Notes under the pieces: model-generated
Database searches by the model: none
What the model was told of the DNA's origin: nothing
The model's input: only the letters and a program-made list of their open reading frames with translations
Shown: piece after piece, positions 8,172 to 53,461 of the stretch
Layout of the letters: every line of letters starts with the position of its first letter
Position numbering within the stretch: the first letter of the stretch is position 1
Source: Patescibacteria group bacterium
Lineage (GTDB): Bacteria; Patescibacteriota; UBA1384; XYA2-FULL-43-10; 1-14-0-10-43-13
NCBI GenBank assembly: GCA_038078835.1
Contig: JBBTQI010000002.1
Span: forward strand, 1 to 59,323
Direction: 5' to 3'
Length of the DNA: 59,323 bases
Program-made: the position numbers and the translations under genes

Positions 8172-8678
8172 GTGGATGTGTTGGTCAATTATACGAGAGG
8201 ATTTTTTGCCGTTATGGCGACTCTTGCTCTGGTGCTGCTGGACACCTCCCTCTTTAGTTTTATTCGGATTTACGACAGTACTATTATCTCGTCCTTTATT
8301 ATCCTGATCGTTTTTGCTCTTCTCGGGCACTCTTTTTACTTAAAAATAATGATACCGGCGGCCATTATCGCTCTGGCGGCGCTCTCTTCTCTGCCGCTTT
8401 GGGTTATTGCCTTTGCCTTTTTTCTTTTGCCCGGAATCGTTTTATTTTTGCGCCAGACCTATGTGCCCGAACCGACCGTCATTGTCACAATAACGGCGCT
8501 TTTACTGACGACATTTCTTTTCCAGTCGGCACTTTTGGTGTCTGACTTGCGCTTTGTCGCCGGTGCCGGTCTGACGACGGCTTACTTTATTTTTCTCAAC
8601 ACCGTCGTCGGTACGGTTGTTTTTGCTGCAAATCAGCGCCTCCGGCAGAAATGGATGAGAGGGGAGATTAAGTTGTAA
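8172..8678 (+). CDS. mreD: Polytopic membrane protein in the MreD position
   Basis: Multi-TM ORF immediately after mreC and before pbp2. The call is based on position. Confidence 0.55.
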   Translation: MDVLVNYTRGFFAVMATLALVLLDTSLFSFIRIYDSTIISSFIILIVFALLGHSFYLKIMIPAAIIALAALSSLPLWVIAFAFFLLPGIVLFLRQTYVPEPTVIVTITALLLTTFLFQSALLVSDLRFVAGAGLTTAYFIFLNTVVGTVVFAANQRLRQKWMRGEIKL

Positions 8679-8746
8679 CTCCCCTATGAAATTACAAATT
8701 CATCGAAACTGCAAATAATTTGTAAGATTTGTAAGTTTGTAGGAGA
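8679..8746. repeat. TACAAAT/ATTTGTA word spacer (family shared with 52117..52213)
   Basis: aaattacaaattcatcgaaactgcaaataatttgtaagatttgtaagtttgtaggaga aligns with the proS upstream spacer. Confidence 0.7.
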
Positions 8747-10687
8747 TTGGGTTTTGTGGATATTTTTGGCAACTTCTCCGAATTGCGGGGGGATAAAAAA
8801 ACACGGCGGGTCACCCGCGGCGATGATCTTGATTTTTCTTACTCTGACGTTGCCAACACATGTCTTACGCGCTTGGAGGAGAAGGAGGCTCCGCCCTCAA
8901 GTTGGGCAATGAAGTTTCTGCTGGTTCTTGCTTTTAGCATTCTGGTCGGCCGGCTTTTTTATCTTCAGGTGGTTCACGGCGGCGACAACCGGAAGCTGGC
9001 GGAGGGCAATCGGATTCGCCCGCGCATTATTGAGGCGTCCCGCGGTTTGGTTAGCGATAAGGATGGTGTTTGGCTAGCCCGGAACCGGCCCGACTTTGCG
9101 TTGGCAATTTATCCCTCCGACTTGCCCAAGAACAAAGAAAATCGCGAAGATGTCTTCTCTGATCTGGCCAATATTACCGGTCTGACTCCGACTGAGATCA
9201 GGGATCTGGCGGCCGGCAACAGCCGCTTCTTTTACGATTCAATCATTATCAAAGACCACTTGAGTCACGAAGAAACTTTGATTTTAGAGGAGAAGATTGC
9301 CAATTTGCCGGGTGTTTTTATCTCCGAGCACTCAACGCGCGAGTACGTCGCCTTGCCCGGCCTGGCTCACCTTCTGGGTTACATCGGTTCGGTTTCACCG
9401 GAGGACATTGAAAATAATCCGGACTATCTTCTCTCCGACCGTGTTGGCAAAACCGGCATCGAAAAAGTGTATGAGGGCTATTTGCGCGGCCAGCATGGCG
9501 TTGAGCAGATTGAGGTAGATTCGCTCGGCAATGTGGTTCGGGTGCTGGTTCAGGAGGAGAACGAGGAGCCGACTGCCGGCAATGATGTTACTCTCTATCT
9601 TGACCGTGATTTGCAGGCTAAGACGGCGGAGTATCTTCGCGGGGGCATTGAGAAGGCCAAGGAGTTGACCGGAACGGAGATCAATGCGGGAGTAGCGGCC
9701 GTTATGGATGTTAAAACCGGCGGTATTCTGGCTCTTGTTTCTCTGCCTGACTACGATAATAATATTTTTACCGGCAAGGTTTCGTCCGGCGACTATCAGA
9801 GATTGATCGAGGATAAGTCCCAACCTCTTTTTGATCGCGCTATTAAAGGTATCTATCCACCCGGCTCGGTTTCAAAGATTATCCTGGCGGCGGCGGGTCT
9901 GGCCGAGGGGACGATCACGCCGGAAACCGCCTTTGATACGCCGCCGGCGATTGAGATTGGCGAGTATGTTTTTCCCGACTGGAAGGACCACGGCCCAACC
10001 AATGTGGAGAGGGCGATTGCCGAATCGAACAACATCTTTTTCTACTCCCTGGGCGGCGGCTTTGACAAGATTCGCGGCCTAGGCATAGAAAAGATTAAAG
10101 AGTATTGGCAGCGGTTCGGTTTGGGTGTGCCGACGGGAATTGATCTGCCGGGCGAAGCATCGGGTTTACTGCCCGATGCCGAGTGGAAGAAGCGGGTGAA
10201 AAATGAGCCGTGGTACATTGGTGATACCTATCACGTCTCGATCGGCCAGGGTGATCTTTTGGTGACGCCTCTGCAGATGCTGCGGGCGACAGCAGTGATT
10301 GCCAGCGGCGGTAAACTTTTTAAGCCCGGGCTCGTCAAGCACATTACCGCACCTGATGGCCGGGTGGTTAGGGAATATGGCGGTGAGCTGGCAGATGATC
10401 AGGTTGTTGCACCGGAGATAGTGGCAACGGTCGGGCGCGGCATGCGCCAGGCGGTAACGGGAGGCTCGGCGCGAAGCCTTGGAGATCTGCCGGTAACTTC
10501 GGCGGGTAAAACCGGAACGGCCCAGTTTTTTGACAACCAAAAAACCCACGCTTGGTTTGAGGCCTACGCGCCCTATGAAGATCCGGAGATTGCGGTGCTT
10601 GTTCTGGTTGAGGGCGGCGGCGGCGGCAACGAGACGGCGGTGCCGGTCGCCAAAGAGATTATGAGATACTATTTTGAGCAAAAATAG
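8747..10687 (+). CDS. mrdA: Penicillin-binding protein 2 (transpeptidase)
   Basis: SxxK (GSVSK), SxN (ESNN) and KTG (AGKTGTAQ) motifs. TTG start follows AGGAGA. Confidence 0.9.
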   Translation: MGFVDIFGNFSELRGDKKTRRVTRGDDLDFSYSDVANTCLTRLEEKEAPPSSWAMKFLLVLAFSILVGRLFYLQVVHGGDNRKLAEGNRIRPRIIEASRGLVSDKDGVWLARNRPDFALAIYPSDLPKNKENREDVFSDLANITGLTPTEIRDLAAGNSRFFYDSIIIKDHLSHEETLILEEKIANLPGVFISEHSTREYVALPGLAHLLGYIGSVSPEDIENNPDYLLSDRVGKTGIEKVYEGYLRGQHGVEQIEVDSLGNVVRVLVQEENEEPTAGNDVTLYLDRDLQAKTAEYLRGGIEKAKELTGTEINAGVAAVMDVKTGGILALVSLPDYDNNIFTGKVSSGDYQRLIEDKSQPLFDRAIKGIYPPGSVSKIILAAAGLAEGTITPETAFDTPPAIEIGEYVFPDWKDHGPTNVERAIAESNNIFFYSLGGGFDKIRGLGIEKIKEYWQRFGLGVPTGIDLPGEASGLLPDAEWKKRVKNEPWYIGDTYHVSIGQGDLLVTPLQMLRATAVIASGGKLFKPGLVKHITAPDGRVVREYGGELADDQVVAPEIVATVGRGMRQAVTGGSARSLGDLPVTSAGKTGTAQFFDNQKTHAWFEAYAPYEDPEIAVLVLVEGGGGGNETAVPVAKEIMRYYFEQK

Positions 10688-32227: not shown

Positions 32228-32271
32228 AAAAAATACTCACTTGCTTCCGATCGTGAACAAGTGAGTATTTT
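32228..32271. repeat. 38-nt hairpin element, copy 2 (inverted relative to copy 1)
   Basis: Same 12-bp stem (32232..32243 / 32258..32269). The loop cttccgatcgtgaa is the reverse complement of the copy 1 loop with one mismatch. Confidence 0.85.
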
Positions 32272-32337
32272 CCTGTCATCTCGCAAGCAGTTTCTTCGCT
32301 CTAAGCCACATTGCTCAGGATGACAGTGGTTACCAAT

Positions 32338-32516
32338 CCGTGAAACCGGAAATTAAATATCTAATCTGTATCTTTATATTCCTCCCCTAGGTTAGGGGAG
32401 GTTAGGTGGGGTGGTAAAATAGATCGGTCTCGTACCCCTCTAGCTCCCCCTGTCTTGGGAGAGAAACACAAGTAATAGCAAATGCCAGTCATGATATTTA
32501 ATTTCCGGTTTCACGG
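32338..32516. repeat. 179-bp element bounded by a perfect 24-bp inverted repeat
   Basis: CCGTGAAACCGGAAATTAAATATC (32338..32361) versus its exact reverse complement (32493..32516). Inner hairpin CCTCCCCTA-ggt-TAGGGGAGG at 32381..32401. Confidence 0.85.
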
Positions 32517-32627
32517 ACCAATCCCCTGACTGTTAGGTTCAGTTGTGGTAAGATTTGCCCAGTTCGGGCAAGTGGAATCTTTCCACAGATCTTGCCAAGA
32601 GGGCTGAATGTGAAAGAAGGTTGAACA

Positions 32628-33172
32628 ATGGCGCTTGACAAACAGAAGCTCGAGGAACAGATCAGGTGGTTAGAGGAAAGAGGTCTTCTGACTCTGGTCA
32701 TCTGACTCTCTGGCCGCCGATCAAGGAGAGGAGAGAGACAACCGAAGATGACCGGCTGGAATTGGCAGAGGATGCCTGGCGACAAGCAACTAGGCAAGCC
32801 AATGAACCGATGCATCAAACGGGTCGCCTTAAGCTTCAGACAACCCTACAGACAGCCTGCGAGATTCTCTTTGATCGGATCGCCAGTCTGGAGATCAGGC
32901 ATGGAGAGGATCGGGAGACCATCGCCGTTCTCCGGAGCCGCTTGGCCGACGCAGAGGTAGCCATTGCCGGCCATGAGCGTGGTGCCACTGTTCTGGCGAC
33001 GGAGAGCTTCGTTTTCCGTCGGCTGGCCGCGGCATCTCCTGCTCGTTCTGGCCGCAACCGTAATCGACCAATGGTAGGTGAGATACCCCACGACTCCGGC
33101 GATCCGGAGGACGGGTTGGCAGATTCTGTCACCGGAGAGGCGATCAATTGTCCGCCCTGCGGTGCGGGGTAG
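32628..33172 (+). pseudogene. Coiled-coil orphan gene with a frame break at a 9-nt direct repeat
   Basis: ATG at 32628 (MALDKQKLEEQIRWLEERG..) stops at 32703..32705. The 168-aa ORF (32666..33172) continues in another frame. Deleting 14 nt between the TCTGACTCT copies (32687..32695, 32701..32709) fuses the two frames. Confidence 0.4.
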
Positions 33173-33287
33173 CGCACAATGTGGGAGGGGAAGAATACGG
33201 GTTGGCTGACATGCCAACCCTTTTTTAATTGGATTTTCTTGGGTGAAATCGGTAAAATAGGCACAGAGAGGAAAATTGAGAGATTGA

Positions 33288-35366
<2,079 letters not shown>

Positions 35367-35493
35367 ATGTCAAAGATTCTACCTCCCCTTATCCTCTTCT
35401 GCTCTGGGAGGGGGAAATGAAATAATGTTTCTAAAAAAATCTATAACGGGACTACATAATATCCAGAGAGGAATAATTTTCCCTCTCCCCTTC

Positions 35494-35521
35494 TTGACAA
35501 ACTATAAAAGGGTGCTACAAT
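35494..35521 (+). promoter_or_regulatory. Near-consensus sigma70 promoter facing the ORF-free GC-rich region
   Basis: TTGACA (35494..35499), 16-nt spacer, TACAAT (35516..35521). Confidence 0.5.
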
Positions 35522-35527
35522 AGCGAC

Positions 35528-36714
35528 AAACCCTGAGTAGGCAAGAGACTACCAGGTCAAGGGCAAGGTGGTGCCAATGGGCCGGCCGCCGTTCGATGGC
35601 GGTGTGGTCTGTTGGGCTGTCGTTGCCGGCCACCTAGACGGCGGCCTCGGCGAGAGAAGAGTGCGGTCGGCCTACCGGGCCGCATGATCGGGACACCTAC
35701 GGAGGGTCCCGAGACAACAGGTAGAATGAGCGCGGACATCGCCCTAAACCGCGCGGGTGAGCAGTCTCACCTTCCCAAGGGCACGGTAGAGGCCGAGTCG
35801 GGAGCGGCGGCGGCGTTATGCTGACGATGTTCCTTGTCGCCGCTCCCGGCCTGTGAAGGAGGAACCATGGGAGGACAGTGGATTCGGGGTCCACTCAGTC
35901 GTCCGAGGTGTCACTCCTGTCTTGCGGGGATTGGTCGACGGTGCCGCGACGCGATTGGTACCTTCGATGCGGCTTTCGGGCCGTTAGTCCGCGCGAGACG
36001 TTCGGTTCCGGTCATCTCTTAGGTTCGCATGTCCCGGAGGTGCGATGGCTAGAAACACATCGCCTCTCCGCCGGCGCAGGGCCGAGGACCCTGTCTGCCG
36101 GTCCGACTCGACACCGCCGAACAGCAACGGGGCGGTTGCCAGAGCCTCCAGCTGGCACCGCACTGAATGCGTAGCGGGAAGGCGCACGAGCCCCAAATGG
36201 CCACCAATGAGTGGCAGTGGGCACATTGTGTCGACCTATCCCCTCCCCAAACGGGGCGCATCGGCCTGAAGTGGCGCTCTCCTGCTTCTGGCCATGAAAC
36301 TGAGAGCACCCGTTCGGTTCGGCAACGCCGGCGGCTGGATCCTGCCATAGTGTGGTAGGTAGGTAAGCTCCCTGCAGGAGCCAATGGCGGATCCAGCCGC
36401 GTTCTTGTGCGCAACGGGTAACCAGCGCACAAGGCAGGGAGACGTCGGCCCTGTCTCCCTGCCTGCATTCATTCTCCCGGCGTCTTCCACTCCGATTCAT
36501 CTTATGCCGGGAGACTGGGTGGCAACGGCCCAAACTTGTCGAGTTAGCCAATCACATTCTAAGCCCGTCAGGGCACAAGGGTGACGATCTTCGGCAAGGG
36601 GAGTGCTGTTGCCCCCGCCCTATTGCCGGCGCTGATTGCCGGTTTCCGAGCCGATAGCGGTGGTAAGTCAATTTGATGCCCCTAACAAGGTGTTGAAGAC
36701 TTCCACCGCTTTTT
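35528..36714 (+). ncRNA. Candidate large (~1.2 kb) structured non-coding RNA, family unknown
   Basis: No credible ORF in any frame and GC-rich. Many nested helices of 9 to 15 bp, with G.U pairs valid only on the + strand. Has its own promoter and a terminator-like 3' end. Confidence 0.5.
36657..36714 (+). terminator. Terminator-like hairpin at the end of the candidate RNA
   Basis: GCGGTGGTAAGTC (36657..36669) pairs with GACTTCCACCGC (36698..36709) with a 1-nt bulge and a 28-nt loop, followed by TTTTT (36710..36714). Confidence 0.35.
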
Positions 36715-36837
36715 CATAACAAGAAAAACCCATGCCCATAAGGGCGGGGTAAGTAAGATAGTAAACGCCGCAGGCGTATTCAGTTTGTCGTTTTATAAGG
36801 CTTGAATACAGATAGGGGAAAGTGATAAGGTTGTTTT

Positions 36838-36912
36838 AGTAGCTGGGTATCAGTAGTTAGAAATTAGGAATTGTTTTTTTCCAGCTACCAACTACTAAAT
36901 TCCTAGCTGCTT
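36838..36912. repeat. GTAGCTGG / AGTAGTT / TAGGAATT word spacer upstream of gatC
   Basis: Each word reappears as its reverse complement (CCAGCTAC, AACTACT, AATTCCTA), but in the same order rather than nested. Confidence 0.7.
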
Positions 36913-36917
36913 TATAT

Positions 36918-37208
36918 ATGGCCATTAATATTGATCAAGTAAAACATATTGCCAAGTTATCGCGCTTGGAGTTAAGTAAAGAGGAAGAGATGAAATATAC
37001 AAAAGAGCTCTCCTCTATTTTGGACTATGTCAATCAATTATCGAAAGTTGAGACAGAGAGTATTGAACCAATGGCTAATATTACAGGCTTGGAAAATGTT
37101 ATGCGGGAGGATAAAGTCGAAGAATTGGGAATATCGCACGACGATATTAAGAAGAACTCTCCAGAGTTTAAGGGTGGTTATTTTATTGTGCCGGGAGTGT
37201 TTGAATAA
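36918..37208 (+). CDS. gatC: Glu/Asp-tRNA amidotransferase subunit C
   Basis: VKHIAKLSRLELSKEEEMKYTKELSSILDYV is the typical GatC pattern. Confidence 0.85.
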   Translation: MAINIDQVKHIAKLSRLELSKEEEMKYTKELSSILDYVNQLSKVETESIEPMANITGLENVMREDKVEELGISHDDIKKNSPEFKGGYFIVPGVFE

Positions 37209-37293: not shown

Positions 37294-38886
37294 ATGGAAC
37301 TGAATAAACTGACAATCAAAGAGGCTAGCGAAAGATTAGCTAGGAGCGAGATTACCTCGGTTGAATTGACTGAAGCGGTTTTTGAGCGAATTGAGGCGGT
37401 AGAATCAAAAATCGGAGCGTATATAACTCTGACCAAAGAATTAGCATTAAAGCAGGCGAAAGAATCAGATAAGCGTAGAAAAGCAGACAAACCACTCTCA
37501 GAAATCGATGGTATTCCAATCTCTCTAAAAGATGTTGTGTTAACAAAAGGAATTAAGACAACTGCAGCTTCAAAGATTCTTGATGATTTTATTCCGCCCT
37601 ACAATGCAACTGTTTATGAAAGATTAATGAGTGCTGGCAGTGTCCTGACCGGAAAAGTGAATACCGATGAATTCACCATGGGTTCATCAACGGAAGCATC
37701 GGCGTACAAGACAGCAAAAATCCCTCACCCTCACCCTAACCCTCTCCCTGAAAGGGAGAGGGAATTAAGAGGAACTCCCTCGCCCATTCCGATGGGAGAG
37801 GGTAGGGGTGAGGGTATATCAACAACAAGAAATCCCTGGGATTTGTCTCGTGTACCAGGCGGTTCATCGGGCGGACCGGCAGCAGCAGTAGCAACTGATG
37901 AATGCTTGGCTTCAGTCGGAACGGATACCGGCGGATCAATTCGCCAACCAGCGAGCTTTTGCAGCATCACCGGCCTTAAGGTTTCTTATGGTTTGGTTTC
38001 TCGATATGGCGTTGTAAGTTATGCTTCCAGTTTTGACACCGTTGGTCCGATGGCCAAATCGGTTGAAGATATAGCGATTGTGTTAAATAAAATCGCCGGA
38101 AATGATCCTCGCGATAGCACATCGGTGGCGCATGACCTGCCGGATTATTTAACATCATTAAATTCTAAAATAACCGGTAAGAAGATCGGTATTCCAAAAG
38201 AATTTTACGGCGAGAGTTTGGATCCGGAAGTAGCATCAAAGTTAAGAGACGCAGAAAAAGTCTTTGAAAAACTAGGCGCAAAAATGGTTCCGGTTTCATT
38301 ACCGTTAACTCATTATGCGATTGCCGCTTACTACATCCTGGTTAAATCAGAGGCTTCCTCAAACATGTCGCGGTATGATGGTATTCGCTATGGCCATTCC
38401 GTCTTGAAGAACAAGAAACTTGATCGAAGACTTTCGATACTGGATGTTTATCTGGAGAGCAGGTCAGAGGGATTCGGTCCGGAGGTAAAGCGATCAATTA
38501 TGATGGGGACGCATACTCTTTCCTCCGGCTACTTTGATGCTTATTATAGAAATGCGGCTAAAGTTCGAACTTGTATTAAGCGTGAGTATGAAAGAGTTTT
38601 TAGGGAAGTTGATGTTTTATTGGCGCCGATCTCCCCTTTTCCGGCTTTCCGACTAGGCGAGAAGATTGATGATCCGTTGTTGATGTATCTGGCGGATGTT
38701 GATACGGTGCCGGTCAATATTGCCGGAATTCCGGCTTTGAGTATTCCAGTCGGATTTACCAGTAATAATTTGCCGGTCGGTTTGCAGTTGATCGGGCCGA
38801 TGTGGGGGGAATCGACGCTTTTACAAGTCGGACACGCTTTCCAGCAAGAGACTGATTGGCATCTTAAAAAACCAGTAATTAAATGA
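37294..38886 (+). CDS. gatA: Glu/Asp-tRNA amidotransferase subunit A (amidase signature)
   Basis: GIPISLKD, GGSSGGPAAAVA and GTDTGGSIRQPA motifs. Carries an in-frame insertion. Confidence 0.9.
   Translation: MELNKLTIKEASERLARSEITSVELTEAVFERIEAVESKIGAYITLTKELALKQAKESDKRRKADKPLSEIDGIPISLKDVVLTKGIKTTAASKILDDFIPPYNATVYERLMSAGSVLTGKVNTDEFTMGSSTEASAYKTAKIPHPHPNPLPERERELRGTPSPIPMGEGRGEGISTTRNPWDLSRVPGGSSGGPAAAVATDECLASVGTDTGGSIRQPASFCSITGLKVSYGLVSRYGVVSYASSFDTVGPMAKSVEDIAIVLNKIAGNDPRDSTSVAHDLPDYLTSLNSKITGKKIGIPKEFYGESLDPEVASKLRDAEKVFEKLGAKMVPVSLPLTHYAIAAYYILVKSEASSNMSRYDGIRYGHSVLKNKKLDRRLSILDVYLESRSEGFGPEVKRSIMMGTHTLSSGYFDAYYRNAAKVRTCIKREYERVFREVDVLLAPISPFPAFRLGEKIDDPLLMYLADVDTVPVNIAGIPALSIPVGFTSNNLPVGLQLIGPMWGESTLLQVGHAFQQETDWHLKKPVIK
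37714..37822 (+). repeat. In-frame palindromic insertion in gatA (~36 codons)
   Basis: CCCTCTCCC-tgaaa-GGGAGAGGG hairpin (37740..37762). Left arm 37728..37748 matches the reverse complement of 37794..37814. Encodes AKIPHPHPNPLPERERELRGTPSPIPMGEGRGEGIST between STEASAYKT and TRNPWD. Confidence 0.8.
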
Positions 38887-46126: not shown

Positions 46127-47125
46127 TTAGGTCAAGATCTTGAGGTAGCGATTGCGGCCGGCGAGGTCTTTTTTGAGTTCTATTTTGCTGTCTTTAAAAA
46201 CATTTCTGGCGTATTTGAGGAGATCAAGGGCATTTCTGGGGTCGAGCTCGACGAGAATCAGTCCGTCCGCATTAATGCGGCTGTGGGCTTGATCGAGGAA
46301 TCGCTTAACGGTTGCCGTTCCTTTATCATCAGCAAAAATCGCCTCCTTGGGTTCAAAGTTAATCCCCTTATTTTTTTCGGCCTTCGGTCTTCGGCCTTCG
46401 GCTTTTTGGGGAACGTAGGGCAGATTAGCGATAACAATACCGAACTTTTGGGGTAAGCGCGGGTTGGAGAAGAGATCGGAGTGATAAAATCTGATAATAT
46501 TGTTCGAGGCTAAAAGCCGAGAACTATTAACACCTGGTTCTCGCTTGTGCTCGAACAATATTCTTTTGGCGTTCTTCTTGGCGACATAAAGCGCCTTTTT
46601 TGATGTATCGGTGGCGTGGAATTTAACCTGCCGGCCTGCTGACTTGCCGGCCTGCTGACTTGCTAGGGCAATGATGATGTTACCGGAGCCGGTACCAATA
46701 TCAAGAATCGCTAAAGGCCGAAGGCCGAAGGCCGGAGGCTTGGTACCACCATTGTTTTGCCTTCGGCCCTTGGCCTTCGGCTTAAGACTGTCTTTTATAA
46801 AGATGAGGGCTTCTTCTGTTAGCAGTTCGGTTTCCGGGCGGGGGATCAAGACATTTTTGTTAACAATAAAATCAAGACCATAAAATTCCTTATGGCCGAG
46901 GATGTAGGCTATCGGCTCGCCCTTTTTCCGTCGCCGGATGTAGCGCCTAAATTGGGCGTAGTCGGCATTGGTCAGCGGCGCTTCGGGATGGCTGAAAATA
47001 TAATCAGTCTTTTTATCAATCGCCGCTTCCAGCAAAACCCGAGCATCAAGTTCCGGCGTATTGGTAAAGGGTGTTAATTCTTGGATTGACTTCTGTAGGA
47101 TTGATTTTATCACCAAATGTCTCAT
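46127..47125 (-). CDS. prmC: Release factor glutamine methyltransferase PrmC
   Basis: DIGTGSGNI SAM motif and NLPYV (NPPY-type) motif. Sits downstream of prfA. Carries several in-frame insertions. Confidence 0.85.
   Translation of the reverse strand: MRHLVIKSILQKSIQELTPFTNTPELDARVLLEAAIDKKTDYIFSHPEAPLTNADYAQFRRYIRRRKKGEPIAYILGHKEFYGLDFIVNKNVLIPRPETELLTEEALIFIKDSLKPKAKGRRQNNGGTKPPAFGLRPLAILDIGTGSGNIIIALASQQAGKSAGRQVKFHATDTSKKALYVAKKNAKRILFEHKREPGVNSSRLLASNNIIRFYHSDLFSNPRLPQKFGIVIANLPYVPQKAEGRRPKAEKNKGINFEPKEAIFADDKGTATVKRFLDQAHSRINADGLILVELDPRNALDLLKYARNVFKDSKIELKKDLAGRNRYLKILT
46378..46402. repeat. CCTTCGG word tract in prmC
   Basis: cggccttcggtcttcggccttcggc, read in frame as ..AEGRRPKAE.. 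Confidence 0.75.
46629..46660. repeat. Perfect 16-nt tandem duplication inside prmC
   Basis: tgccggcctgctgact appears twice (46629..46644, 46645..46660) followed by tgc. The ORF stays open (..SQQAGKSAGRQ..). Confidence 0.85.
46716..46781. repeat. In-frame palindromic insertion in prmC
   Basis: GGCCGAAGGCCGAAGGCCGGAGGC (46716..46739) versus GCCTTCGGCCCTTGGCCTTCGGC (46759..46781). Encodes ..KAKGRRQNNGGTKPPAFGLRP.. Confidence 0.8.
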
Positions 47126-51036: not shown

Positions 51037-52116
51037 GTGATACTAACAATTCTCGCCTTCCTTATTGTTCTGGGCGTCCTGGTGCTGGTTCATGAACTGG
51101 GCCATTTTGTTGTGGCGAAACTCTCAGGCGTAAAGGTGGAGGAGTTTGCTTTCGGTTTTCCGCCCCGCTTGTTTTCAATAAAGAAGGGAGAGACTCGCTA
51201 TTCGGTTAATGTCGTGCCCTTTGGCGGCTATGTCAAGATGCTGGGGGAGCTGGAGCACTCCGCCAGTCCGAGAGCATTCGAAAACCAGAGAGCCGGCAAG
51301 CGTTTTGCTATCTCGATTGCCGGGGTGGTGATGAATATTTTGCTTGCCTGGACGATTCTGACTGTCGGTTTTATTGCTGGTATGTCGCCGATTATCTCTG
51401 ATCCGGATACCTTGCCCGGGCAAAAGGTGAGCTCGGAAATTATCGTGGCCAACGTGACGAAGGGCTCGGCCGCCGAAAAAGCCTCTTTTCAGGCCGGGGA
51501 TATGCTTTTGCGGGCTCAGACCGGCGAAGATCAGGTTAACTTTGATTCCGTGGAGAGTGTTGGCGATTTCACCCGCCGCCATCAGGGCGAGAGGGTAGAA
51601 TTTGTTTACGAGCGCGGCAATCAGTCGGAGACTAAGAGCGTCGAGCTTTCCCGGGATGGAGAGGCGCCGCTGGGCGTAGCTTTGGCCGAGAGATCGATCG
51701 TGAAGGTGCCGTGGTATCAGGCGCCTTATGTCGCTCTTCGTGAGACTTGGCATGTGGTCGAGGTCACCTTTAGGTTTTTCGGCCAATTTTTACACAATCT
51801 TTTTGCACGCGGCGAGGTCGCCGAGGAGGTGGGCGGACCGGTTGCCGTTTATGTTTACAGCGGTTTGGCGGTTCGGGCGGGAGTAATGGTTTTCCTGCAG
51901 TTTATCGCTATGCTCTCCGTTAATTTGGCGATTATCAACATCTTGCCCTTTCCGGCGCTTGATGGCGGCCGTCTGCTCTTTATCGCCCTGGAGAAGCTGC
52001 ATGGCCGCAAAGTGGTGAGAGAAGAGATCGAAAACATTATCCATACCATCGGTTTTGCTGTTTTGATCGCTCTTCTACTAGCCATCACTTACCGCGACAT
52101 TATCAAACTCTTCTAG
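51037..52116 (+). CDS. rseP: RIP metalloprotease RseP (M50) with PDZ domain
   Basis: HELGHF, a PDZ segment, and NILPFPALDGG. Confidence 0.85.
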   Translation: MILTILAFLIVLGVLVLVHELGHFVVAKLSGVKVEEFAFGFPPRLFSIKKGETRYSVNVVPFGGYVKMLGELEHSASPRAFENQRAGKRFAISIAGVVMNILLAWTILTVGFIAGMSPIISDPDTLPGQKVSSEIIVANVTKGSAAEKASFQAGDMLLRAQTGEDQVNFDSVESVGDFTRRHQGERVEFVYERGNQSETKSVELSRDGEAPLGVALAERSIVKVPWYQAPYVALRETWHVVEVTFRFFGQFLHNLFARGEVAEEVGGPVAVYVYSGLAVRAGVMVFLQFIAMLSVNLAIINILPFPALDGGRLLFIALEKLHGRKVVREEIENIIHTIGFAVLIALLLAITYRDIIKLF

Positions 52117-52213
52117 CCTTACTACAAAATTACGAATTCAACAAAATTACCAATATTGCAAATATTTGTATGATTTGTAGTTTCGGTGAATTTGTAAATT
52201 TATAGGAGACTAA
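52117..52213. repeat. TACAAAT/ATTTGTA word spacer (family shared with 8679..8746)
   Basis: aaattacgaattcaac...tgcaaatatttgtatgatttgtag...aggaga aligns with the pbp2 upstream spacer. Confidence 0.7.
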
Positions 52214-53461
52214 ATGAAGCAGTCGCAACTATTTTACAAAACCCGCAAGGAAACACCGGCGGATGCCGACTCAATTAACGCTTCGTACTTTATCCGGGCC
52301 GGGTTTGCCCATAAGCATATGGCCGGAGTTTATGCTCTACTGCCCCTTGGCTTTCGAGTTCTAAAAAAAATCGAGCAGATCATTCGCGAGGAAATGAACA
52401 CTATTGGCGGGCAAGAAATTTTAATGAATGTGTTGCAGCCCAAGGAGCTGTGGGAGGAAACGGGCCGCTGGCAGTCGGCAGTGGACATCTTCTATAAGCT
52501 CCGGGACAGTCGCGGCAAGGAGTTGTGTTTGGCGCCGACTCATGAAGAGGAGACAACTGACATTGTTCGCGGCAGCACCAATTCCTATAAAAATTTGCCA
52601 ATTGCCCTCTATCAGATTCAGGCTAAGTTCAGAAATGAACCCCGGGCCAAATCCGGCCTGCTCCGCGGCCGGGAATTTATTATGAAGGACCTCTATAGTT
52701 TTCATACCAGCGAAGATGATCTTTGGCGTTACTATGATGTAGTGAGAGCTGCTTACTTTAAGATTTTTGACCGTTTGGGCCTTAGTGTGAAGTTGGTCGA
52801 GGCTTCGGGCGGGGTTTTTTCAAAATTTTCCCACGAGTTTCAGGTGCTGACACCGGTGGGAGAAGATACAATTTATTACTGCGACAAGTGCGATTTTGCT
52901 CAGAACAAGGAGATCGCCAAAGTCAAGGATGGCGACAAGTGTCCGGGGTGTGATGGCCGCATCAAGATGGATCGCGGCATTGAGGTTGGCAATATCTTTC
53001 CCTTGATGGCACGGTTTTCCGAGCCGATGGGAGCGGTTTTCCTTGATAGGGACGGCAAAGAGAAAGTGATGGTGATGGGTTCTTACGGTATCGGTTTAAC
53101 GCGGGCGATGGCGACGGTAGCGGAGATGAAATATGACGCAGCCAAAAACGCTATGGTCTGGCCCGGAGAAATTGCACCGTATCGGATTCACCTGATCTCT
53201 CTTAATAAAAATGATCAGGCGAACAGGATTTATGATGAATTAAGAAAAAAAAATATCGAAGTTTTGTTTGATGACCGCGATATTTCGGCCGGCGAAAAAT
53301 TCGCCGAGGCTGATTTAATCGGGTGTCCTATCCGGCTCATTATCTCTGAAAAATCCCTGGCCGCTGGCGGAGCGGAGCTGGTCGATAGGATCGATAATAA
53401 AATAAAGATTGTGTCGGTCGGAGAGATATCAAGGGAGATCAAGGGGATAACAAAGGGATGA
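52214..53461 (+). CDS. proS: Proline--tRNA ligase lacking the INS editing domain
   Basis: Class II motifs (FRNEPRAKSGLLRGREFIMKD, GSYGIGLTRA) and an anticodon-binding C-terminus. Only 415 aa, with a CDKC...CPGC knuckle where INS normally sits. Confidence 0.9.
   Translation: MKQSQLFYKTRKETPADADSINASYFIRAGFAHKHMAGVYALLPLGFRVLKKIEQIIREEMNTIGGQEILMNVLQPKELWEETGRWQSAVDIFYKLRDSRGKELCLAPTHEEETTDIVRGSTNSYKNLPIALYQIQAKFRNEPRAKSGLLRGREFIMKDLYSFHTSEDDLWRYYDVVRAAYFKIFDRLGLSVKLVEASGGVFSKFSHEFQVLTPVGEDTIYYCDKCDFAQNKEIAKVKDGDKCPGCDGRIKMDRGIEVGNIFPLMARFSEPMGAVFLDRDGKEKVMVMGSYGIGLTRAMATVAEMKYDAAKNAMVWPGEIAPYRIHLISLNKNDQANRIYDELRKKNIEVLFDDRDISAGEKFAEADLIGCPIRLIISEKSLAAGGAELVDRIDNKIKIVSVGEISREIKGITKG

Follow-up and report, generated by a model that had tools for sequence, protein, structure and literature searches.

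A candidate large structured non-coding RNA gene in the ligA-gatC spacer of a Patescibacteria genome

Large bacterial RNAs and the insert between ligA and gatC

Recent work has shown that large ornate RNAs such as GOLLD, ROOL and OLE form RNA-only assemblies. OLE, of about 600 nt, is found in Bacillota beside oapA-type partner genes. GOLLD members are often > 800 nt long, their 3′ region being better conserved and their 5′ region variable (PMC12286853), and are often located near tRNAs (PMC12286853, PMC5737381), while ROOL averages 581 nt and contains many multistem junctions (PMC5737381). The context of GOLLD and ROOL is prophage or phage, often by tRNA islands (PMC12286853). Here, we analysed a stretch of 59,323 nt from a Patescibacteria group bacterium (assembly GCA_038078835.1, contig JBBTQI010000002.1, positions 1 to 59,323; hereafter the window), in which the spacer between ligA and gatC carries an insert with a predicted transcript of ~1187 nt (35528-36714, + strand) that is GC-rich, non-coding and highly structured (z = -7.4 for its minimum free energy, MFE).

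We propose, with about even confidence, that this spacer contains an independently transcribed, lineage-specific gene of ~1.19 kb for a large structured non-coding RNA (ncRNA), an RNA with a probable structural or scaffolding role in trans. The promoter, the terminator, the fold and the lack of coding potential are read from the sequence; transcription, function and any similarity in mechanism to GOLLD, ROOL or OLE are inferred. According to the proposed scheme, a sigma-70 promoter would start transcription of the + strand near 35528 and a terminator would end it at about 36714, 87 nt before the gatC promoter. The transcript would fold into several domains, and its 3′ third (36331-36710) is predicted, by computation on this one sequence, to consist of seven successive hairpins, long, GC-rich and for the most part perfect, one of which would expose a 20-nt single-stranded C/U-rich loop. 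The gene would have entered the region between ligA and gatC, where most Patescibacteria have a short spacer. By analogy with the known large ornate RNAs, the product would most likely be a stable trans-acting scaffold, binding protein or RNA partners or associating with itself; a role as cis-regulator appears less likely than a role in trans.

These properties echo those of GOLLD (RF01998), also a large, GC-rich, multi-domain, stand-alone bacterial ncRNA, and function is unassigned in both. The strongest structure signal of the insert lies in its 3′ third, just as the 3′ region is the better conserved one in GOLLD (PMC12286853). Similarly, the analogous insert of the closest genome, L007 (CAZGWE010000001.1, LigA 74% identical; L-numbers designate the fetched relative loci), abuts a tRNA-like element, as GOLLD is often near tRNAs (PMC12286853, PMC5737381). 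On the other hand, the insert is longer, ~1.19 kb (1187 nt) compared with the > 800 nt given for many GOLLD members (PMC12286853). It gives no match to the GOLLD model at E <= 10, no tRNA occurs in the 59 kb, its flanks are housekeeping genes and not prophage, blastn finds no phage match and no homolog family is known.

ROOL (RF03087) resembles the insert as an ornate, protein-free-looking large RNA recognised as a GC-rich structured intergenic region. However, the insert is twice the size of ROOL, does not match its model and has no prophage or tRNA-island context, neither phages nor viral contigs showing any similarity to it; moreover, ROOL is widespread in three phyla with covariation, whereas no relative of the insert RNA is known. 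OLE (RF01071) is likewise a chromosomal, stand-alone, large structured bacterial RNA that is not phage-borne, but again the insert does not match its model, and the neighbours of the insert are ligA and gatC.

The original prediction, an earlier description of this locus drawn from its sequence, had set the insert apart from RNase P, transfer-messenger RNA (tmRNA), signal recognition particle (SRP) RNA, rRNA and group II introns, and had seen no gene for a reverse transcriptase (RT), IscB or TnpB beside it. These exclusions hold. A cmscan-type search with all Rfam 15 covariance models returned no match at the gathering threshold over the whole window, and at E <= 10 the region 35300-36950 gave only six chance-level matches of 14-21 bits to unrelated families (HIV_GSL3, SMCR2_1, HCV_5BSL1, suhB, Hrs1 and SNORA21). 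GOLLD, ROOL, OLE, HEARO, raiA, RNase P, tmRNA and introns produced no Rfam model match, and ARAGORN detected neither tRNA nor tmRNA in the 59-kb window. In an approximate scan for hallmark motifs, to be taken as a lead, the P4 GGAAAGUCC-type box of RNase P, the tRNA-like end of tmRNA and the SRP and group II domain V motifs were not detected, and no RT, IscB or TnpB gene lies near the insert.

The insert RNA falls outside every curated RNA family; if real, it would be a new large-RNA gene of a known kind, that of the large ornate bacterial ncRNAs. It would then be one of the largest structured RNAs observed in bacteria apart from those of the ribosome, and a further case beside the few large ornate RNAs GOLLD, ROOL and OLE. 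To our knowledge, no such large structured RNA has been described from the Candidate Phyla Radiation (CPR), and a search of the literature turned up none. Patescibacteria genomes are small and streamlined, and this small genome size makes 1.2 kb of non-coding DNA hard to dismiss.

Transcription signals, fold and coding potential

The open reading frame (ORF) of ligA spans 33294-35366 and encodes 690 aa with the Pfam domains DNA_ligase_aden, OB and BRCT. It is followed, after a spacer of 1551 bp that is by far the largest gap without genes in the 59-kb window, by gatC (36918-37208) and then by gatA, a PPIase gene and gatB; the neighbour genes of the insert also include one for an M48 peptidase. 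Both borders, at 35366 and 36918, and the empty spacer between them were verified as originally described. The GC excess over the flanks, first noted by eye, was measured: GC content reaches 0.63 over 35501-36500, against 0.47 and 0.45 in the flanks (63% versus 45-47%) and 0.512 in the whole window.

The same locus has been assembled independently in CAYILD010000001.1 (GCA_964364305.1, a metagenome-assembled genome from Hainich groundwater), in Logan ERR3858133 and ERR3858118 and in ENA ERZ1292626. The ligA-gatC spacer is identical across these assemblies from several samples, the sole mismatch being located 4 nt from a contig end, which shows that the insert is genuine DNA rather than a chimera or an assembly artefact. 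The clusters of LigA, GatA, GatC and of the product of ORF168, an ORF upstream of ligA, are singletons; no strain-level variation was found, and the species is clonal in public data.

At the 5′ side of the insert, a sigma-70-type promoter (35494-35521, + strand) matches 11 of 12 consensus positions. It consists of TTGACA (35494-35499), a 16-nt spacer and TACAAT (35516-35521), with TG before the -10 hexamer (TTGACA-16-TGcTACAAT), and it is placed exactly at the GC jump. Counting both strands of the 59 kb, only three sites reach 11 of 12 positions, and just this one has the TG extension. Transcription of the + strand is accordingly predicted to start near 35528. At the other side, a bulged composite hairpin of 22 bp that precedes UUUUU (36656-36714, + strand, pair probabilities > 0.9) has the features of an intrinsic terminator: its stems 36656-36663/36703-36710, 36665-36669/36698-36702 and 36672-36680/36689-36697 are closed by an apical loop of 8 nt and followed by TTTTT, and the - strand has no T-run matching the hairpin. 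A simple terminator scanner missed it, the paired span being beyond the limits of the scanner. Both the near-consensus promoter directed into the spacer and the bulged terminator with its T-run had been picked out in the original prediction, and both are present. The signals of a sigma-70 transcription unit with intrinsic terminator, namely -35 and -10 boxes at 16-18 nt spacing and a hairpin with U-run, are thus found on the same strand, as sequence signals.

Downstream of the terminator, and outside the RNA, lies a promoter-like element of gatC (CTTGAAT ... GTGATAAGGT, 36801-36833, + strand). It is the sole stretch of the spacer that can be aligned with L007, and the same motif is conserved upstream of gatC in L081, L083 and L056. 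Since this conserved element is located downstream of the insert, gatC would not depend on the insert promoter. Likewise, since the RNA has its own terminator ahead of gatC's own promoter, it would be neither a leader of gatCAB nor needed for gatC.

The arrangement bears on the alternative that the insert acts in cis, either as a very long, structured 3′ untranslated region (UTR) of ligA or as a leader or attenuator with read-through into gatCAB. No classical terminator is found between the ligA stop and 35494, the flanking genes are co-directional with an adjacency conserved across Patescibacteria, and the terminator of the element is situated 200 nt ahead of gatC, all of which would fit such a role. 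Yet the insert possesses its own strong promoter, the gatC promoter-like element downstream of the terminator is present also in relatives without the insert, and spacers of 16-240 bp suffice in related Patescibacteria. In addition, the T-box, riboswitch and leader families gave no match at E <= 10 in the spacer. We consider a cis-acting RNA very improbable. The more specific idea that the insert is a gatCAB attenuator was rejected in view of the conserved downstream promoter of gatC.

In the 5′ UTR of gatC itself, which follows the promoter-like element within 36801-36908, three pairs of complementary segments are interleaved in the order 1, 2, 3, 1′, 2′, 3′ around a T7 run. They could form alternative structures or a pseudoknot, and so a possible gatCAB attenuator.

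Turning back to the proposed RNA gene, the complete + transcript has an MFE of -586.2 kcal/mol, compared with -511 +/- 10 in dinucleotide shuffles, from which the z of -7.4 derives; four coding stretches of the window with similar length and GC content, used as controls, range from z = +0.6 to z = -2.5. Perfect Watson-Crick stems of at least 9 bp with loops of at most 60 nt number 6 in the insert versus a mean of 0.3 in the shuffles, none of which (0 of 200) reaches 6. A fold scan along the entire 59 kb places the 3′ part of the insert among a handful of outliers.

All helices listed in the original prediction are present in the sequence. On the 5′ side, a hairpin with stems of 11 bp and 8 bp and a UCG loop (35574-35615, + strand) is predicted with pair probabilities > 0.9. 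Further along comes a 16-bp helix that is extended inwards by 5 bp (35797-35850, + strand; arms 35797-35812/35835-35850). This helix, counted as 15-16 bp, includes the two G.U pairs 35798:35849 and 35810:35837 noted earlier. A three-way branched domain is then predicted at 35919-35999 (+ strand), from the fold and its pair probabilities, with a hairpin capped by UUCG at 35969-35984. The latter is the true UUCG hairpin of the insert: the letters of a cUUCGg loop reported at 36589-36594 are there, but their flanks cannot extend a stem, and the fold uses instead the helix 36535-36542/36591-36598.

The 3′ third begins with a perfect 12-bp helix (36331-36342/36389-36400) extended by 5 bp (36344-36348/36384-36388), the whole element covering 36331-36400 on the + strand with 100% complementary arms and an apical GGUAGGUAGGUAAGC region. 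There, the segments 36367-36371 and 36377-36381 (GCUCC/GGAGC) are complementary by sequence, whereas the MFE structure prefers 36355-36359/36371-36375. Two adjoining perfect hairpins of 9 bp (36404-36412/36425-36433) and 11-13 bp (36434-36444/36452-36462) occupy 36404-36462 (+ strand). Next to them, an 11-bp hairpin (36473-36514, + strand; arms 36473-36483/36504-36514) presents the 20-nt unpaired C/U-rich loop CUUCCACUCCGAUUCAUCUU (36484-36503), which occurs once in the window. A long bulged stem (36521-36613) and a 7-bp hairpin (36625-36643) complete the predicted fold ahead of the terminator (36521-36643, + strand).

Concerning orientation, the - strand of 35528-36714 scores z = -5.9, compared with z = -7.4 for the + strand, and the stability excess over shuffles amounts to 75 kcal/mol on the + strand versus 59 on the - strand. 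The + fold contains 48 G.U pairs and the - fold 26, where shuffles give 50 and 39. The structure of the - strand thus looks like a mirror that loses its G.U pairs, as would be expected if the + strand is the one that folds; we take this as a moderate indication, not a decisive one. The direction of promoter and terminator also favours the + strand.

The GC content of 63%, which looks foreign, would suit another alternative, a decayed GC-rich gene acquired horizontally (a pseudogene) or one or more small proteins. The - strand contains ORFs of 179 and 139 aa, with TGA as four of the six stops in one - frame, and the + strand has three ATG ORFs of 51, 74 and 66 aa with Shine-Dalgarno (SD)-like motifs. 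The properties expected of coding DNA are nevertheless missing. The six frames are interrupted by 6-13 mixed stops each, codon-position GC is flat (0.61-0.64) in the insert versus 0.61/0.40/0.64 in ligA, and Arg, Pro, Gly and Ser abound in the ORF translations. Neither the insert ORFs nor the six stop-masked frames match Pfam, and the longest ORF (179 aa, - strand) has zero matches at E <= 0.001 among 1.84 billion representative proteins. The gene caller leaves the spacer empty on full-length contigs, the 139-aa ORF being called solely on a truncated contig, as a singleton. Furthermore, the fold z of -7.4 is far outside the local coding range, and the best SD-like motif, AGGAG at 35857-35861, is sequestered in a helix with CUCCU at 35914-35918 (p > 0.9). 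Period-three composition, protein similarity and gene calling hence all speak against a protein-coding gene or pseudogene, to which we assign a very slight probability, and the earlier statement that the spacer has no credible coding sequence, its short Arg/Pro/Gly-rich ORFs lacking periodicity, Pfam match, protein relative and gene call on full contigs, is confirmed. A - strand ORF with recoded TGA was also tried and rejected on account of its junk-like translation, the lack of periodicity and the lack of homologs.

The same site in related genomes

The order ligA-gatC is widespread in Patescibacteria, where the spacer usually measures 16-240 bp; because this is the normal size in relatives, the 1.55 kb spacer of the window is best explained by an insertion. 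In L007, the spacer is 1.56 kb long and has a TTGACA promoter of its own at 8345 (stretch 8345-9127), with a GC-rich structured stretch of ~750 nt (z = -12.9). A tRNA-like element (8991-9065) forms the end of this stretch, and a terminator and an ORF of 75 aa (9186-9413) with a strong SD come after it. This tRNA-like element is non-canonical, with an acceptor stem of 8-9 bp and the T-arm GGUUCGAAUCC; ARAGORN names it ‘Val-aac’, and its score with the Rfam tRNA-Sec model is below threshold.

Other GC-rich mini-units made of hairpin, promoter and terminator were observed upstream of the conserved gatC promoter in L081 (1-640) and L083 (389-650), whose GatC proteins are 76% and 70% identical to that of the window. 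On these short contigs the adjacency of gatC to ligA is putative, and in L083 the gene that precedes gatC is another one, rich in GC. Homology of the window insert with those of L007, L081 and L083 was considered and rejected: the alignable part is confined to the gatC promoter region, and 10-12-mers are shared no more often than expected by chance.

The search for homologs was extended to larger collections by exact-word DNA scans and by a few pattern and protein-level probes, so that ‘orphan’ means here not found with limited means. By nhmmer, the insert matched only the identical contigs among 75 ligA loci of GTDB species. In a collection of 5.8 billion proteins, the closest GatC sequences are 76%, 72%, 71% and 70% identical, and nhmmer against contigs of the closest GatC relatives, of which the three nearest were fetched, revealed no insert homolog. 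A covariance model built from 36328-36520 had no match other than itself in 43 loci (0.51 Mb of relatives). The insert had no blastn match among phages and plasmids. A word scan of a metagenome collection that does not contain this species, with an 18-nt loop word, gave 33 chance matches, none with extended similarity, and two viral word scans together with a back-translated ORF scan of viral contigs gave nothing beyond chance. Of the unclassified large RNA of the original prediction, the descriptive part stands: the insert is non-coding, on the + strand, ~1.19 kb from promoter to terminator, unusually structured and without match among the curated RNA families. A functional ornate RNA of the GOLLD, ROOL or OLE class would be a further step, which requires conservation and covariation; no homolog was found in the syntenic relatives or by the few probes of the large collections.

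Judged from the sequences compared, the ligA-gatC spacer appears to be a site where insertions vary strongly within this clade. Different structured RNA genes may land there, reminiscent of the location of GOLLD and ROOL near tRNA islands (PMC12286853, PMC5737381), or the site may act as a sink for selfish hairpin DNA. If the insert RNA is real, one would also have to ask why the structured RNAs found at one site differ between related genomes.

Several observations weigh against the proposed RNA gene. As relatives with short spacers demonstrate, the clade can do without the insert, and no homolog was found in the relatives or collections probed. The fold signal is uneven, the 3′ 387 nt having z = -7.6 versus z = -3.5 for the 5′ 800 nt, and the long perfect hairpins of the 3′ third supply most of it. 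The strand asymmetry is modest, and 36267-36566 scores better on the - strand than on the + strand. Finally, this genome demonstrably accumulates palindromic insertions (37723-37815, 46710-46781 and 32337-32517).

These points could be accommodated if the insert were selfish or neutral hairpin-rich DNA, an insertion hotspot having been filled with GC-rich palindromes (similar to Rickettsia palindromic elements or repetitive extragenic palindromic (REP) elements, or to the decayed non-coding end of a mobile element) whose transcription would be incidental. The stems would then reflect the origin of the DNA and not the needs of an RNA. Mutually unrelated GC-rich, hairpin-rich sequences occupy one site in three or four related genomes (the window, L007, L081 and L083), and palindromes are also met inside gatA (z = -12.3), in a prmC-like ORF and, as a 25-nt inverted repeat, upstream of ORF168. 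Many stems of the insert are perfect, as in young palindromes, both strands fold beyond chance (z = -5.9 for the - strand), and conservation of the insert was not found. However, no second copy of the insert or of any part of it occurs in the 59-kb window, a test that covers ~60 kb of the genome, where the gatA palindrome is likewise single-copy, and its borders show no terminal inverted or direct repeats. The GC-rich block is bracketed, in the correct orientation, by a rare TG-extended promoter and a terminator, while G.U usage and stability excess favour the + strand. Moreover, the 5′ two-thirds are not simple palindromes and are still non-coding and GC-rich. Weighing these arguments, we regard selfish or neutral DNA as the main alternative, possible though on the whole unlikely.

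Rickettsia palindromic and REP elements are short (~100-150 bp) and form repeated families. Like them, the sequences described here are hairpin-forming insertions in intergenic DNA, and here also in frame in gatA, whereas the candidate RNA gene measures 1.2 kb, is unique in the window and is bracketed by promoter and terminator. The gatA insertion shows that such elements are active in this genome, and they could have built part of the spacer. If the insert is selfish hairpin DNA, it would, together with the gatA and prmC-like palindromes, document the activity of Rickettsia-like palindromic elements in a CPR genome, a smaller point but a useful one.

A bolder extension of the RNA gene reading, which we put forward as a rather doubtful speculation, is that the ligA-gatC spacer of one Patescibacteria clade receives large, stand-alone structured RNA genes that evolve fast. 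The ornate RNA of ~1.19 kb in the window and the 0.75-kb RNA of L007 with its tRNA-like module would then be the CPR counterpart of the tRNA-associated GOLLD and ROOL, and might form self-assembling RNA-only particles.

Other palindromes in the window

Within gatA (37294-38886), a GC-rich palindromic element of ~93 bp is inserted in frame at 37723-37815 (ccctcaccctcaccctaaccctctccc ... gggagagggtaggggtgagggt), where the local fold reaches z = -12.3. It adds roughly PHPHPNPLPERERELRGTPSPIPMGEGRGEGIS to the protein, residues that are missing from GatA of L007, and it is single-copy in the window. This element is reminiscent of the Rickettsia palindromic elements located in coding genes.

The prmC-like ORF (46127-47125, - strand) contains an imperfect GCCGAAGGCC-repeat palindrome at 46710-46781, with 23-nt arms that are 87% complementary (z = -6.0). 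Upstream of ligA, a perfect 25-nt inverted repeat (32337-32361/32493-32517), whose arms are separated by 131 nt, surrounds a cctcccctaggttaggggagg palindrome, an arrangement similar to that of miniature inverted-repeat transposable elements (MITE). It sits upstream of ORF168 (32666-33172), a GC-rich orphan without Pfam match and a singleton, and the region 32250-33290 has z = -6.3.

Between the ORFs 51037-52116 and 52214-53461, a 46-nt AT-rich overlapping palindrome was found at 52122-52205 (78% complementary, z = -6.7), which may be a bidirectional terminator or an operator.

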